DNA from: Prolixibacteraceae bacterium UBA6029
GTDB lineage: Bacteria; Bacteroidota; Bacteroidia; Bacteroidales; Prolixibacteraceae
Assembly: GCA_002429385.1 (NCBI GenBank)
Contig: DIZL01000048.1
Location: forward strand, 800-64,799
Direction: 5' to 3'
Length of the DNA stretch: 64,000 bases
In this document: in pieces, positions 12,302 through 45,700 of the stretch
Numbering within the stretch: position 1 is the first letter of the stretch
Layout of the letters: every line of letters begins with the position of its first letter
Position numbers and translations under genes: made by a program
Notes under the pieces: model-generated
Databases searched by the model: none
What the model saw: the letters and a program-made list of their open reading frames with translations, nothing else
Told to the model about the DNA's origin: nothing

Positions 12302-12347
12302 TCCTCACCTTTGGATTTGCCAAATAATTTGTATCTTTAGGTTTCAA

Positions 12348-12527
12348 ATGAGTTCAAGCCAAAGTCTGACGATACGATTCAGAAATGAACTCCCTGACTT
12401 CGGACACCAATTTTATATTCCTCAAAATCTACTTCAGGAAAACCATAAACAGGCTTTCGAGCTACACGGAAGGGTTCTGGGTAGGGATTGCGTCGTGTTT
12501 CCTTCGGATGAATTAATCTATGATTGA
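12348..12527 (+). CDS. Candidate 59-aa protein of unknown family (coding status unproven)
   Basis: ATG..TGA frame conserved in length and phase with 45167..45346(-), with 33/59 identical residues. A TATCTTTA box lies 8 nt upstream of the ATG. The last 13 codons lie in the conserved core around the palindrome. Confidence 0.4.
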   Translation: MSSSQSLTIRFRNELPDFGHQFYIPQNLLQENHKQAFELHGRVLGRDCVVFPSDELIYD

Positions 12528-12579
12528 TTTGCAACTGTACAAAGATCGCGATTTTAGTACTGTTGCAGATCAGTCATAG
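12518..12579. repeat. 62-bp imperfect palindrome (23-bp arms, 16-nt loop), copy A
   Basis: Arm ctatgattgatttgcaactgtac, loop aaagatcgcgatttta, arm gtactgttgcagatcagtcatag. 20/23 arm positions pair. Flanked by ttccttcgg (12500-12508) and ccgaaggaa (12590-12598). Confidence 0.85.
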
Positions 12580-12796
12580 TACAGATATACCGAAGGAATA
12601 CCCTCTCAAACCCCTCCCTGAATACTCTGGGATTCCTTCGATCAGTTACTTTAATGGATGGACTAATCGTAAAAAGACCTATTGAAAAAGAATCCAGGGG
12701 AGCAGCTCTTCAGGGGATAATGCGACCCCTGCATATTTAATCCGCAATTTATTCTCCTTTTTTATAAGCTATTTCCTTGAAAGAGGTCGTTTTTGT

Positions 12797-27822: not shown

Positions 27823-28083
27823 GTCAGTAGGTTTTTTTCAGAAACAACATAAGAGCTTTTACCGCAGACATCGTTTTTCGTTATGGTGTTTGTGGCGCAA
27901 GGTACAAAATATCAGTGAACTTACGGCTGATTCATGCTATTGTTTGACAACCAACCTTCAATTTTCCCTTGGTGATGTACAGGGTTGCACTTTGGCCTTA
28001 ATGATTTAAAAGGATCCTCCTCACTGATTGGCTTAATTGGCAATTAATCCTGTCCATTTCCTTATTGATTGCCTCGGGATCGG

Positions 28084-28230
28084 GAGGGTATCCCTTGGGT
28101 ATTCCTTCTCTATATTTGTACTATGATTGATCTATAACTGTACAAAAATTCGTATCTTTGTATAGATAGAGATCAATCATAGTTTAATCATTGAAAAGGG
28201 ATACCCAAGGAATACCCAAGGGATACCCTC
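28084..28230. repeat. 147-bp palindromic element with perfect 24-bp terminal inverted repeats (copy B of the palindrome family)
   Basis: IR-L gagggtatcccttgggtattcctt (28084-28107) is the exact reverse complement of IR-R (28207-28230). The inner 62-bp palindrome is 28121..28182. The 78-bp core has 67/78 identity to the 45.1-kb copy by manual alignment. Confidence 0.9.
28153..28160 (+). promoter_or_regulatory. -7 box TATCTTTG facing the DUF6266-like gene (a second box TATATTTG lies at 28111..28118)
   Basis: Exact TAnnTTTG motif. The 13-mer tatctttgtatag is identical to 32009..32021 upstream of the paralog. Confidence 0.55.
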
Positions 28231-28258: not shown

Positions 28259-28897
28259 ATGGCACGAATGAAAAGAAACATCGGTGATCTGGTCTCAGGA
28301 CGGATCGGAAACGTGGTATTTTACACACGGAATGGAGTTAACTATGTACGTGCAGCCCCTGATCGGAAAAAAGATTCCTGGTCTCCGCAGCAGTTGTTGC
28401 ACCGCCAGCGGTTTAGCAAGGCCAGTTATTTATGGAGCCAGCTGAAAAAGACAAAAGTAGCCCCTATCTGGAATTTAGCAGCCGAGCGTATGAATGGGTA
28501 TGCATTGTTTATGAAAGCCAATATGCCAGCCTATGCCTTGGACGGAAGTATTATTGACCCCAGGATGCTGAAGATTTCGACGGGCAAACTGCATTTGCCT
28601 ATGGATTTTGAAGCAGCAAGGGAGTCCATTGGAAGCACTTTGATTGCGGTTAGCTGGAAAAATGACCCCAATATGAAGGGCAAACGCCTGGAGGATGAAT
28701 TAATGGCCGTAAGCGCTGCCGATGGACATTACTCTGCCCTGACTCCTACGGGACTGCTGAGAAGCGCCCAAAACGGCTCATTTACCCTGCCTGTGAAGCC
28801 AGCAGATGCAACGCATATTTACCTGTTCTTTGCCTCTAACGATGGATTGGACTATACGGAGAGTGTATGTGTTGAGATTGGGAGCCGCGGTTTTTAA
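28259..28897 (+). CDS. DUF6266-like protein (Bacteroidota-restricted, function unknown)
   Basis: 212 aa with no signal peptide. The N-terminal G-x-x-G-N-V-V...G..YVR...Q...R.RF pattern is shared with the paralog at 32093. The DUF6266 name is assigned from memory. Confidence 0.55.
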   Translation: MARMKRNIGDLVSGRIGNVVFYTRNGVNYVRAAPDRKKDSWSPQQLLHRQRFSKASYLWSQLKKTKVAPIWNLAAERMNGYALFMKANMPAYALDGSIIDPRMLKISTGKLHLPMDFEAARESIGSTLIAVSWKNDPNMKGKRLEDELMAVSAADGHYSALTPTGLLRSAQNGSFTLPVKPADATHIYLFFASNDGLDYTESVCVEIGSRGF

Positions 28898-29274
28898 CCG
28901 TGTACAGTTATAAAAAGCGATTAAAAATCACTGGTCCCGTTTGTTGTCAGCATGTCCGAATCCAAATAATGAAATCAAAGAACTAATTTCAGCCCAACAA
29001 GGCATGGGAAATGGCTACTAATTCATTATCTTTAGTATTTACTACGAATGTCGTCTATTGTAACAGCGGACAAACCAAAACCATTTTGCAATGAAAGCAA
29101 GAATTTATCAGGCAGTCTTGAAAGCCGCACATAACGAACTGCTCAGGTTATCAACACCCAAAGCAGCATAATGACTAAAACAATGCGTAACATGAGTTAT
29201 TATTAACACTTTCACTTGTTGAAAACTTTAATTAATATATTTTCAATCTTCAGAATGTCTTCAGAATTACATTC

Positions 29275-29298: not shown

Positions 29299-31749
29299 AT
29301 GTTTAAAAATTTAATTCTATCAATAGTTTTATTCTTACTGAGTTGTAATTATCTGTATAGTCAAAACAAAATCAAGATCACAGGTATTGTAATTGATGCC
29401 CTTCAGAAAACCCCGGTTGAGTATTGCAGTGTAGCTTTAATAGACCAGCAAACCGGGAAAATCATCGATGGAGTCATTAGTAATGCAAAAGGAGCATTTG
29501 CTTTAGTTGTCCAAAAACCAGGTATTTATAAAATAAAGGCAGACTTCATTTCTTACCATCCATACCTTAAAGATAGCATTCGGATAGATAAAACCGACCT
29601 TAACATAGGTACTTTGCTTTTGCAACCGGCTGCTATTAATATGAATGAAGTGACTGTTACGGGGACTAAAGCTGCGATCGAAAATCATATTGATAAAATG
29701 GTCTACAACCCGGGCAATGACCTTACTGCCCAGGGGGGCGTTGCGATTGATATTCTAAAAAAAGTACCCATGGTCAGCGTAGATATTAATGGGAACATAG
29801 AATTGATGGGTAGCAGCAGTATCCGCTTTCTGATTAATGGTAAGCCATCGAGTTTATTTGGTGCAAGCATAACTGATGCCTTACAGTCAATTCCTGCCGA
29901 CCAGATCAAAGATATTGAAGTAATCACCAGCCCTGGTGCGAAGTATGATGCTACAGGAACCGGAGGGATCATCAATATCATATTAAAAGATAATCAGGTC
30001 CAGGGAATTAATAGTAGTGTGAATCTCACTGTCGGTACTCGTCGTGAAAACGGATCGTACACTTTAAATGCCCGTAAGGGTAATTTTGGAGTTGGTGTAT
30101 TTCTGAATGGAAACAGGCAGTTTAATACGATAACTAAAAACACCAGTAACCGGCAGTCATATAATGCTGCTAAAGATACGATCAACCAACTTTACCAGCA
30201 TGGAGAAAACCCTTATACGAGGAGCGGTTACCGGTCGGGGATAAATTTCAACTGGAGTATTACTAAAAAAGACGAGCTGACTGCTGGTTTTAACTATAAT
30301 CATTTTGAAAACCATGGAACCGGAATAACCAATCAGGATCAGCAAACCTTATTGTCAACGGGCAACGTTTTAGCAGATTTATTGACCGACAGGGCTTCTG
30401 ACAGCAGGATGAGCGCCAATTCCACTGACTGGAGCCTGAGTTACAAAAAAACATTTAATAAGAAAGATCAGGAATTAGACGTGTTGTATAATTCAAGTAA
30501 CGGAAATAATTTGAATAATGCCTCACAAACCACCACCTATCTGAGTGGCGGCCGTCAATCATCAGGCTTGCGCAGTAATAACCCCGGCCAGGATCATCAA
30601 TCCGAACTATCGCTTGATTATACACAGCCTGTCATCGAAGGTTTTACAATTGAAACAGGGGGAAAGTTTATTGTGCAGGATATCAGCAACAGCGTATTAA
30701 CCGATACTTTGCTTACGAATGGGCTTTATGCCCGAAACAATGGCCAGACCTATAGTTTTAATTACAAACGCAGTATATATGCCGCTTATCTTTCAACATC
30801 CTTTTCTTTTTTTCATGATTTTCTGATTGGGAAAGCAGGTTTACGCTATGAGCGAACCAATACTTCTGCTGATTTTGCAGGAACTTCGATTCCAGGTTAT
30901 AATACTTTTGCTCCTTCATTTACGGTTCAGCATAAAATAGGTAAGACTCAATTTTTCAAATTTGCCTACAGCTATCGTATAGAAAGACCTGACTATGGTG
31001 ATCTTAATCCATTTTTCAATATAAGTGATCCACATAATATTAGCACGGGTAATCCCTTAGTGAAGCCAGAGATTGGGCATAATTATGAACTGGGCTATAA
31101 TAAGACGTTCGAAAAAGGAGGAAATATATATTTTGCAGGATCTTACCGTTATAATACTGATGATATGCAGTCTTTAACCACTTTCTATAAAACTCTTCCC
31201 GTTAATGGAACCGATTATAATGATGTTGCATTAACAACCAGATATAACATTGGTTCACAAACAAGCATTGGGGCCAACATTTTTGGGTCGGTGCCTGTAA
31301 CCAAAAAACTGAACCTACGTTCGAATATACAACTTGGAGAGCGGACAAATACCAACCCCGGTATGCCCAGCGTTAGCGGGTTCTCCTATCGTGCCAATTT
31401 AAATGCGAGCTACGAGTTGCCACATGATCTCGCATTCGAGGTTTTTGGCAACTACAATTCATCACAAAAGAATATTCAAAGTACCCGTCCTGCCTTTTTC
31501 TTCTATAACCTGGCAATACGGAAACAATTTCTGAATAAAAATGCCAGTATTGGTTTAACCGCTACAAATCCATTCGGGATGTATATTACTCAAAGGTCTG
31601 CATCGTATGGATCAAATTTTTATCAGTCAAACATAAGGTTGATACCATTCCAGTCATTTGGAATTACACTCAGTTATAAATTGGGCAAGTTGGAATTTAA
31701 AAAGGATGCCAAAGATGAAAACAATAATCCTCAACAACCGGATTTATAA
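29299..31749 (+). CDS. Outer-membrane beta-barrel protein (CarboxypepD_reg N-domain plus OMP_b-brl_3/TonB-receptor-like barrel)
   Basis: 816 aa with a signal peptide. N-terminal ITGIVIDALQKTPVEYCSVALID, a plug-like region (ILKKVPMVSVDINGNIELMGSS..RFLINGKPS), and a long alternating beta pattern to the C-terminus. Confidence 0.72.
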   Translation: MFKNLILSIVLFLLSCNYLYSQNKIKITGIVIDALQKTPVEYCSVALIDQQTGKIIDGVISNAKGAFALVVQKPGIYKIKADFISYHPYLKDSIRIDKTDLNIGTLLLQPAAINMNEVTVTGTKAAIENHIDKMVYNPGNDLTAQGGVAIDILKKVPMVSVDINGNIELMGSSSIRFLINGKPSSLFGASITDALQSIPADQIKDIEVITSPGAKYDATGTGGIINIILKDNQVQGINSSVNLTVGTRRENGSYTLNARKGNFGVGVFLNGNRQFNTITKNTSNRQSYNAAKDTINQLYQHGENPYTRSGYRSGINFNWSITKKDELTAGFNYNHFENHGTGITNQDQQTLLSTGNVLADLLTDRASDSRMSANSTDWSLSYKKTFNKKDQELDVLYNSSNGNNLNNASQTTTYLSGGRQSSGLRSNNPGQDHQSELSLDYTQPVIEGFTIETGGKFIVQDISNSVLTDTLLTNGLYARNNGQTYSFNYKRSIYAAYLSTSFSFFHDFLIGKAGLRYERTNTSADFAGTSIPGYNTFAPSFTVQHKIGKTQFFKFAYSYRIERPDYGDLNPFFNISDPHNISTGNPLVKPEIGHNYELGYNKTFEKGGNIYFAGSYRYNTDDMQSLTTFYKTLPVNGTDYNDVALTTRYNIGSQTSIGANIFGSVPVTKKLNLRSNIQLGERTNTNPGMPSVSGFSYRANLNASYELPHDLAFEVFGNYNSSQKNIQSTRPAFFFYNLAIRKQFLNKNASIGLTATNPFGMYITQRSASYGSNFYQSNIRLIPFQSFGITLSYKLGKLEFKKDAKDENNNPQQPDL

Positions 31750-32008: not shown

Positions 32009-32016
32009 TATCTTTG
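32009..32016 (+). promoter_or_regulatory. -7 box TATCTTTG upstream of the second DUF6266-like gene
   Basis: Same tatctttgtatag 13-mer as at 28153, 76 nt before ATG 32093. Confidence 0.5.
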
Positions 32017-32092
32017 TATAGCGAATGATAAAGAAGGAATAACTCGCGTAAAGTCCAACCGAGTCGGAGCACAAACAATTAAAATTACTATC

Positions 32093-32734
32093 ATGAGTAC
32101 TATCAAACAGGGTATCTTAGGTGGCTTCTCCGGTAAAACCGGGACAGTCATCGGAAGCAGCTGAAAAGGCATCGCTGTTATGCGTGGAATAGCCCCCAGC
32201 ATTGCACAACCCAATACAGAAGCACAGCTCAATCAAAGGGCCAGGTTTTCTGTAGTGGGCAAGTTCTTACGTCCTCTTATTCCCTTTCTGCGGATAGGGT
32301 TTAGAAGCCAGGCAGTAAAAATGTCGGGTTTTAATGCGGCTATGTCGTACAACCTGGAGAATGCCCTTACTGGTACTTACCCAGCTTACGACATCGACTT
32401 CTCAAAAGCGCTGGTCAGCCAGGGTTCCCTTCCGGGGGCTTTAAACCCTGAAGTCACCTCCTCAACGGCAGGCGAAATCGGGTACACCTGGGAAGATAAT
32501 TCAGACGACACCAACGCCTCTGAAAACGACAAGGTCTTGCTGGTAGTGTATAACCCGGTTAAGAAAAGAGCGGTTACGGTAGTAGGTGGAAATACCCGCA
32601 TCGGTGGCAGTCAGTCCATCACTCTTCCTTCCAACTTCTCAGGCGACGAAGTTCAGTGCTACATTTCCTTCGGAACGGCTACTCAGTCGGTTGTCTCCAA
32701 CAGCGAGTTCGCAGGCGGGATAATCGTATCGTAG
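32093..32734 (+). pseudogene. DUF6266-like paralog interrupted by an in-frame TGA at 32162..32164
   Basis: ATG 32093 opens MSTIKQGILGGFSGKTGTVIGSS*KGIAVMRGIAPS..., in the same frame as track ORF 32180..32734. The N-terminus aligns to 28259..28897, and the stop aligns to Arg24 (CGG) of that paralog. Confidence 0.55.
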
Positions 32735-44930: not shown

Positions 44931-45114
44931 AATCAAAATTACTGTTTCACAAACCATTTATCTGATTACAAGATAAACTACAATCCTGAAGAGTCCTAAT
45001 TGTTCAGAAATTGCGAAAGAGATATCCCACAAAGTGCCTGATCGGAGAAATATAGTCTTAACCAAGGTCGGGTTTGGATAGGGATTGAGAGGGTATTCCT
45101 TCGGTATATTTGTA

Positions 45115-45176
45115 CTATGACTGATCTATAACTGTACTAAAATTGCGATCTTTGTACAGTTGCAAATCAATCATAG
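45115..45176. repeat. 62-bp imperfect palindrome, copy D
   Basis: Arm ctatgactgatctataactgtac, loop taaaattgcgatcttt, arm gtacagttgcaaatcaatcatag. aactgtac/gtacagtt pair perfectly next to the loop. Confidence 0.85.
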
Positions 45177-45346
45177 ATTAATTGATCCGAAGCAAACACG
45201 ACGCAATCCCCTTTCGGATACTTTCCGTGTAGTTCGAAATCAGGTTTAATGGTTTCCTGAAGAATATTTGAATGGAGAGAGAATTGGTTTTCGGAGTCAA
45301 TAAGATCATTTTTATATCGTATCGTCTGACCCTGGAGTGAACTCAT
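45167..45346 (-). CDS. Candidate 59-aa protein, paralog of 12348..12527 (coding status unproven)
   Basis: MSSLQGQTIRYKNDLIDSENQFSLHSNILQETIKPDFELHGKYPKGDCVVFASDQLIYD. Not in the ORF track (<60 aa). A TATCTTTA box (45355..45362, minus strand) lies 8 nt upstream of the ATG. Confidence 0.4.
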   Translation of the reverse strand: MSSLQGQTIRYKNDLIDSENQFSLHSNILQETIKPDFELHGKYPKGDCVVFASDQLIYD

Positions 45347-45700
45347 CTGAGTTTTAAAGATACAAATATTTAGGCAAAGGATATTTCTTCTGAAAATTAG
45401 CAGAAAATAAAAACATTAAAATGAGGAAAATATATACTGCTGCACTTGTTGATAGTTACTGAAAAAAAATCCACGAATATTATTTGTTATTTTCCTTTAA
45501 CTAACAGGCAAAATAATTCATTGTGAAAGAATTATTTTACAAAAAAAACGCTATTTTCTTCAAAATATTTTGTATATTTATAGAGTAATGACACCCTGAA
45601 ATCGTCATTTAAAATGCACACCTGTGACGTTTTCGATTCTTAATTCTTCCGCATACGTCGAACACCAAGTCGGCTTTCGTTTTTGATTAAAGAGTATCAC

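Follow-up and report, generated by a model that had tools for sequence, protein, structure and literature searches.

Directly upstream of an uncharacterised gene of the DUF6266 family lies a 147-bp palindrome (28084-28230, here called B) whose outermost 24 nucleotides are perfectly matched, and the question raised by this locus is whether such a structure is the body of a small transposon, an invertible switch, an RNA hairpin or part of the control region of the gene that follows it. The window, that is, the whole stretch of 64,000 nucleotides that was analysed, belongs to a 206-kb contig of JGI metagenome 3300013427 and encodes proteins whose named relatives are found in Prolixibacteraceae MAGs (Bacteroidota), and the T9SS sorting domains present in some of them are consistent with Bacteroidota. 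The sequence of B was confirmed to the base, and a profile search of the window returned exactly three copies of the palindrome, A, B and C. No tRNA was found in the window. The parts of B are as follows.

28084-28107, plus strand: left outer arm, GAGGGTATCCCTTGGGTATTCCTT, with two GGGTATYCCTT units (starting at 28086 and 28097), pairing with 28207-28230
28086-28151, plus strand: left half of B, six 11-nt units in register, in order GGGTATCCCTT, GGGTATTCCTT, CTCTATATTTG, TACTATGATTG, ATCTATAACTG and TACAAAAATTC
28121-28182, no strand assigned: inner palindrome and conserved core of the family, arms 28121-28143 and 28160-28182
28152-28228, minus strand: right half of B, seven 11-nt units in inverted orientation
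28196-28230, plus strand: right outer arm, with three AAGGRATACCC units (starting at 28196, 28207 and 28218), the last 24 nt being the partner of 28084-28107

The first-pass annotation of this DNA had described a perfect 24-bp terminal inverted repeat built from GGGTATYCCTT units, two on the left and three on the right, and both descriptions were confirmed. The segments 28084-28107 and 28207-28230 are exact reverse complements with no extension of the match beyond them, and for the unit, allowing at most one mismatch, the window has 9 matches, a number that none of 100 shuffled sequences reached and that compares with an expectation of 1.95. The annotation had also placed between these ends a 62-bp palindrome with 23-bp arms and a 16-nt loop. 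Its coordinates and its loop (28144-28159) were correct, but the arms are imperfect, with 20 of 23 positions complementary. The manual count of 67 matches in 78 positions, with no indel, between the core of B and the copy at 45.1 kb (C) was reproduced, and the copy at 12.5 kb (A, on the opposite strand) matches the same core at 62 of 78 positions.

The terminal units, at ~11 bp or one helical turn each, had further been likened to iterons or operators. This likeness holds and reaches well past the ends, since the 11-nt periodicity spans the whole element and not the termini alone. A lag of 11 gives the strongest autocorrelation in B (0.51-0.58, with the 95th percentile of shuffles at 0.38-0.46), reaching 0.58 in the left half (shuffle 95th percentile 0.46) and 0.53 in the right half. 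B is an inverted array, with six and seven 11-nt units, degenerate in sequence (nnnTATnnnnn), on the two sides of a 16-nt centre.

The three copies in the window do not exhaust the family, as the first-pass annotation had allowed that they might. A gapped core pattern identified 86 stretches in JGI metagenomes, with the spacing between anchors always exactly 45 nt, and after removal of duplicates no fewer than 82 distinct members of the family are known from public metagenomes. The copies share a 66-nt core in strict register; apart from positions that the search pattern itself dictated, little or no variation is seen in TATA at -6 to -3, TGATCT, AAAAT, ATCTT and TTAA. Between 19 and 22 exact-core copies were found within single metagenomes and several contigs carried two to four; 81 of the 82 copies are intergenic. 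Exact-pattern scans of 185,579 reference genomes returned no copy, a search that would have missed diverged relatives because 21-28 exact bases were needed, and nhmmer found no further degenerate copies in 765 kb of sequence. Related palindromes upstream of DUF6266 genes are present in Prolixibacteraceae MAGs, and as far as public data show the family is confined to an uncultured lineage of the Prolixibacteraceae. A phage or plasmid origin was rejected: viral contigs contained no copy in the exact-pattern scan, the plasmid collection contained none by BLAST, and DUF6266 has no match in PHROG. An integron attC site was likewise set aside on inspection by eye, as there is no integrase, the palindrome stands before the ORF instead of after it, and housekeeping genes surround the scattered copies.

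The family also shows what the perfect ends of B represent. Across copies the outer GGGTATYCCTT unit is present in one to four repeats, and the longest stretch of perfect outer repeat, measured per copy, is 8 nt at the median, with the 24 nt of B being the maximum among 77 copies. When the outer arms of a copy were compared with each other and with those of other copies, the values were 9.8 and 8.5, respectively (p = 0.017 overall), a difference that is not significant within subtypes. The perfect ends of B arise because a unit common to the family is tandemly repeated in both arms, a local accident, and they therefore give no evidence that the arms are kept matched. Thus the proposal that the inverted repeat is actively maintained finds no support, and a 147-bp unit bounded by maintained terminal repeats is not the pattern of the family, in which no conserved terminal inverted repeats define the ends.

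The copies fall into two subtypes. Class ii comprises 24 copies, including B, and is marked by TTTAAT after the core; 50-130 nt further on, ATGGCACGAATGAAA... marks the start of a DUF6266-family gene. Class i comprises 58 copies, including A and C, and has ATTAAT after the core together with longer conserved non-coding surroundings, spanning roughly -290 to +240 relative to the core, with greater extents in some subfamilies. For the 33 class i copies whose two neighbouring genes are known, the neighbours are divergent in 15, tandem in 16 and convergent in 2. The features that distinguish B from the class i copies are a putative promoter box and the gene that the box faces.

28153-28161, plus strand: predicted -7 promoter box TATCTTTGT, matching TAnnTTTGY and lying 106 nt ahead of the ATG of the DUF6266 gene that it faces
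28259-28897, plus strand: DUF6266-family gene (212 aa), forming with the element a unit of ~0.8 kb found in unrelated contexts
32009-32017, plus strand: TATCTTTGT box again, 86 nt ahead of the second DUF6266 paralogue, with no palindrome

In Bacteroidota the -7 promoter consensus is TAnnTTTGY (PMC8748976). A TAnnTTTG sequence occurs at one fixed position of the core in 20 of the 24 class ii copies, compared with 1 of the 58 class i copies, and in all 18 assembled class ii loci the element faces the gene in a single orientation. In B the box, recognised by its motif, is central, so that the units are phased with the DNA helical repeat around a predicted promoter, as is expected of iterons and operators; no clear -33 TTTG is seen at the usual spacing from 28153-28161. 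Neither the box nor the constant link to a downstream DUF6266 gene had figured in the first reading of this sequence.

The same arrangement recurs far from the window. In the DUF6266 homologues of loci L090, L091 and L099, which are 56-60% identical, TATCTTTGT stands exactly 73 nt before the ATG, again central in a palindrome, whose loop (CTAAAAT...TATCTTTGTAT) is conserved and whose arm sequences are different. The 11-nt inverted arrays of homologues that are 45-49% identical have quite different units, namely ATCTGTGTAnT (L094) and TATAATTCGA (L096). Autocorrelation peaks at a lag of 11 in B and C as well as in the regions upstream of the L090, L091, L094 and L096 genes; upstream of the L099 gene this lag ties for the top, at a value (0.43) below the shuffle 95th percentile. 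Box-bearing palindromes ahead of homologues only 56-60% identical mean that the palindrome is ancestral to the DUF6266 upstream region, and that with its box it is an old feature of these regions, not a recent insertion before this particular gene.

The gene and the element form one unit. When the window was compared by BLAST with 11 other DUF6266 loci, homology extended only from ~28076 to ~28880, with unrelated flanks on either side, and the neighbours of DUF6266 genes vary between loci. Many DUF6266 homologues lie on contigs of ~1 kb, suggesting that the repeated unit breaks assemblies.

Several further features of the DUF6266 loci were recorded. At 28885-28934, at or just past the DUF6266 stop codon, are two small terminator-like hairpins (CCGCGG-TTTTTAA-CCGTG and AGCGATT-AAAA-ATCACT) that are common to about half of the related units. 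Short repeats of ~8-11 nt of the ACGAATTA or CGAATT type occur in the leaders of DUF6266 genes (L006, L007, L041 and L049) and also after the DUF6266 stop (L041, L047, L049, L080 and L096:3625-3670); at B a single ACACGAATTAA is kept at ~28250. The second DUF6266 paralogue of the window, at 32095-32734 on the plus strand, is a canonical member of the family (Pfam E = 2e-60 for the residues from 32180 on) and has an in-frame TGA at 32161-32163 where its relatives have Trp, so that it is either a pseudogene or affected by a sequencing error. The two DUF6266 genes flank an OMP_b-brl_3/TonB-like gene (29299-31749). Tandem DUF6266-family paralogues occupy L096:3001-3624 and L096:4071-4712, with the 11-nt inverted array before the first only.

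Two other stretches are notable. In L064, where the palindrome is present with no DUF6266 gene after it, ~35 nt at the promoter side of a CotH gene (orthologous to window 27938-27969) are duplicated at 960-992 and 2397-2436, and the duplication brackets a 1.4-kb insert with two small ORFs whose N-termini resemble signal peptides. The 141 bp at 29062-29202 are ~95% identical to L049:1-130 and L086:1032-1172, far above the similarity of their surroundings, with a TATCTTTAG box ahead at ~29029 and a 26-codon ORF at 29091-29171; there is no Rfam match, the stretch folds no better than shuffled sequence, and a small gene and a further repeat are both conceivable.

The other two copies of the window differ from B in their surroundings as well as in lacking the box.

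12305-12785, minus strand: copy A, class i, without promoter box, shared module at 12484-12614, extra left and right non-coding modules filling the whole intergenic space; outer limits approximate
44950-45390, plus strand: copy C, class i, without promoter box, shared module at 45081-45210; outer limits approximate, and the right module may reach ~45520

Looking for empty sites in relatives had been suggested for this element, and one was found at copy A. The order of the peptidase C1, AmiA-like and acyltransferase genes is kept in L102, L103 and L104, whose acyltransferases are 90%, 84% and 83% identical to that of the window, and the spacer between the AmiA-like and acyltransferase genes is 71-83 bp in these relatives compared with 527 bp in the window. 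The site in the relatives is a genuine empty site, and copy A is therefore polymorphic for presence and absence at a syntenic position. The acyltransferase promoter region (GTTTTTGTTAATTTTGCAG) is the only part of the spacer that can be aligned among the relatives; the remaining intergenic DNA is not alignable at these distances (83-90% protein identity) and no target-site duplication is readable at the junctions. A and C are versions of the palindrome without the promoter box, carried in non-coding elements of ~0.5 kb that were probably inserted within the lineage.

Copies A and C also overlap two predicted genes of 59 aa, 12351-12527 (plus strand) and 45167-45346 (minus strand), which were rejected as genes because the frame is broken in most copies; both are repeat artefacts. 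Each ORF terminates within the palindrome, and public collections list one of them as a protein. No protein family corresponds to the ORF: among 5.8 billion proteins a word-indexed search retrieved nothing besides the ORF itself, and the only hits of a profile search over 1.84 billion proteins were short spurious ORFs belonging to other copies, together with two unrelated repeat proteins.

The box in class ii copies and the constant orientation ahead of DUF6266 genes argue that B is most likely the promoter and operator of 28259-28897. With moderate confidence, we take B to provide the DUF6266 gene with its promoter and operator, forming with it a multi-copy unit that has dispersed, promoter-less derivatives. 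In this arrangement the -7 box in the centre and right arm of B would drive 28259-28897, with transcription starting inside the right arm, and the helically phased units on both sides would control the promoter at the level of DNA. The 11-nt units may be sites for a DNA-binding protein, or the array may form a supercoil-sensitive cruciform, and the palindrome, with or without its gene, would have spread to many sites. The helical phasing, together with a unit sequence that is specific to each lineage, points to an action on DNA through either protein binding or cruciform extrusion.

A comparable layout is known from plasmids, in which iteron and inverted-repeat operators of rep genes consist of short, helically phased, inverted units that overlap the promoter of the adjacent gene. 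B has all of these traits over a putative promoter of its adjacent gene. In contrast to plasmid rep operators, the family described here is chromosomal and present in dozens of copies, its gene product lacks a winged-helix Rep fold, and the plasmid collection holds no match.

The alternative that survives best is that B is a non-autonomous transposon, a MITE of the Correia/ERIC type that landed upstream of the DUF6266 gene and whose 24-bp terminal inverted repeats are recognised by a transposase encoded elsewhere. Correia (CREE/NEMIS) and ERIC/IRU elements of Proteobacteria are dispersed, intergenic, imperfect palindromes of 100-150 bp, some of which provide promoters or fold in transcripts, and Correia elements have conserved 26-bp terminal inverted repeats and a TA duplication. 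The present family resembles them in its size, imperfect palindromy and dispersal among intergenic sites, with three non-coding copies in 64 kb of one genome, and the confinement to one lineage, the empty site at copy A and the perfect 24-nt ends of B are all compatible with transposition. To this extent the Correia/ERIC analogy of the first-pass annotation stands. It fails at the ends of the element: the terminal repeats are unconserved, with B at the extreme of a distribution in which own arms match no better than cross-copy arms within a subtype, a target-site duplication could not be shown, and the internal 11-nt periodicity sets the family apart from Correia elements. Furthermore, the boundaries of the family are graded and mosaic, not sharp, and the candidate in which class i would be a giant palindrome or an element bounded by terminal inverted repeats was rejected, as the left module compared with the reverse-complemented right module was shuffle-like in 25 of 26 copies. 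The annotation had noted no transposase in the window, and no transposase or recombinase domain was found among 38 window ORFs checked against Pfam. Finally, the palindromes that precede DUF6266 homologues only 56-60% identical show the palindrome to be ancestral rather than recently inserted. We consider an origin of B as a MITE unlikely.

Two groups of repeats help to place the family more precisely. REP/BIME sequences are mobilised by RAYT transposases. Like the present family they are high-copy extragenic palindromes in a mosaic, modular arrangement, and in both cases the DNA is presumed to be bound by proteins. In one account (PMC3733652), the REP unit is a palindrome of 20-40 bp with a conserved GTAG or CGTC head, whereas the palindrome here is 62-147 bp long, is made from 11-nt units and has no such head. 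There is also no Y1 transposase in the window, although an IS200-like Y1 transposase gene (PF01797) lies at L099:5166-5627, 1.5 kb downstream of the DUF6266 gene of that locus.

The closest described analogue in Bacteroidota is BrickBuilt of Porphyromonas gingivalis, a MITE-like repeat with 19 copies that are always intergenic and that contain short tandem units, leader and tail modules and promoter elements (PMC4596501). The two share a host phylum, restriction to a species or lineage, multiple copies, intergenic location, short units and promoter elements, which in the present family are predicted. By its description, BrickBuilt consists of 23-nt units in direct tandem with small inverted-repeat ends (PMC4596501), whereas in B two inverted 11-nt arrays make up a 147-bp palindrome, the ends are not conserved and one subtype is linked to DUF6266 genes.

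A different possibility is that the palindrome acts as RNA, with the long hairpin serving as a leader, a small RNA, an RNase III target, a stabiliser or a terminator. Folding of the element as single-stranded DNA and as RNA, a check proposed with the first annotation, yielded one long hairpin on either strand (-42.9 kcal/mol as DNA, -76.1 and -75.1 kcal/mol as RNA), with z of about -11 to -13 (about -12 on both strands) and none of 200 shuffles as stable. Over the whole family, 85.9% of cells in the inner stem are paired, compared with 27-39% in slid controls, and compensatory changes occur in 8 of 29 pairs. Cells altered in both partners number 82, where shuffles give 49.8 +/- 5.1 (0 of 500 as high); this covariation is supportive and not proof because the copies are related to each other. 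Such changes in the arms are unlike what a simple protein-site model predicts and fit either a single-stranded DNA or RNA hairpin or homogenisation between arms. Mismatches are asymmetric between strands, with 214 A.C against 79 G.T, which reflects a few fixed positions; an excess of A.C over G.T would favour RNA of the minus strand, in which G.U pairs would form. Together, the compensatory changes and the A.C excess leave a hairpin-based or RNA role alive.

Other observations argue against RNA as the working form. No Rfam family matched the window at gathering thresholds, and permissive searches gave only generic plant-miRNA hairpin models, at 43 bits or fewer against thresholds of at least 100. 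Since the predicted start lies in the right arm, mRNA of the DUF6266 subtype would not contain the left arm, and the leader that remains folds like shuffled sequence (z -0.19). The direct 11-nt periodicity within the arms has no RNA rationale, and RNAalifold recovered the inner stem only. A terminator was rejected, as the hairpin is not followed by a U-tract and convergent genes flank just 2 of 33 class i copies. Overall, we regard action as RNA as improbable.

It is also conceivable that DUF6266 itself binds the 11-bp arrays (GGGTATCCC or GTACTAT array DNA), either as an autoregulator or as a new mobilisation protein, with the class i copies as its non-coding derivatives. DUF6266 is the sole gene co-inherited with the array, the sequence of the unit changes with the DUF6266 lineage, the N-terminus of the protein is basic and many homologues sit on contigs of ~1 kb. 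At its N-terminus the AlphaFold model of the protein (pLDDT 82) has a basic beta-hairpin, then three helices, and its C-terminal half is an FN3/Ig-like sandwich. Searches by fold gave only FN3/Ig-like beta-sandwich matches, with no HTH or other DNA-binding, nuclease or transposase fold, and DUF6266 was accordingly rejected as a transposase or regulator on structural grounds. A sequence profile against the PDB gave nothing meaningful, there was no match in NCBIfam or PADLOC, and no literature on the family was found. Moreover, host lineages differ along with DUF6266 lineages, so that the co-variation of unit and protein is confounded, and downstream of the gene the window has no inverted copy of the array that would close the unit. 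There is thus a slim chance that DUF6266 and its array form a self-regulating or self-mobilising unit of ~0.8-1 kb whose palindrome has been copied to dozens of intergenic sites. If that were true, DUF6266 would be a novel type of protein that binds DNA arrays, and a dispersed repeat derived from a promoter could wire neighbouring genes to the same DUF6266 factor.

Least probable of all is that an invertase flips the 99-bp segment between the 24-bp repeats to switch DUF6266 on and off, for although B resembles the invertons of Bacteroidales, in which inverted repeats surround a TAnnTTTGY promoter segment upstream of the regulated gene (PMC8748976), in having perfect repeats around a short box-bearing segment directly before a gene, it differs from them in its single orientation at 18 of 18 assembled class ii loci, in the absence of any recombinase domain among the 38 window ORFs where the invertons of PMC8748976 adjoin their invertase, in flanking repeats that are short and imperfect in most related copies, and in a segment that is itself palindromic, so that inversion would change little.

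What is unusual about the element, a dispersed palindromic intergenic repeat, is its seeming origin in, and its association with, the control region of genes from an uncharacterised family. The repeat accounts for spurious small ORF calls in public databases and probably accounts for assembly breaks around DUF6266 genes. If B is the promoter and operator region of its gene, the promoter box within helically phased inverted repeats would be the first concrete handle on DUF6266, and the change of unit sequence with gene lineage would make a linked DNA-binding factor directly testable. The family would also represent a dispersed repeat of Bacteroidota that seemingly arose from the control region of a gene, not from the ends of a transposon, which bears on how intergenic repeats originate.
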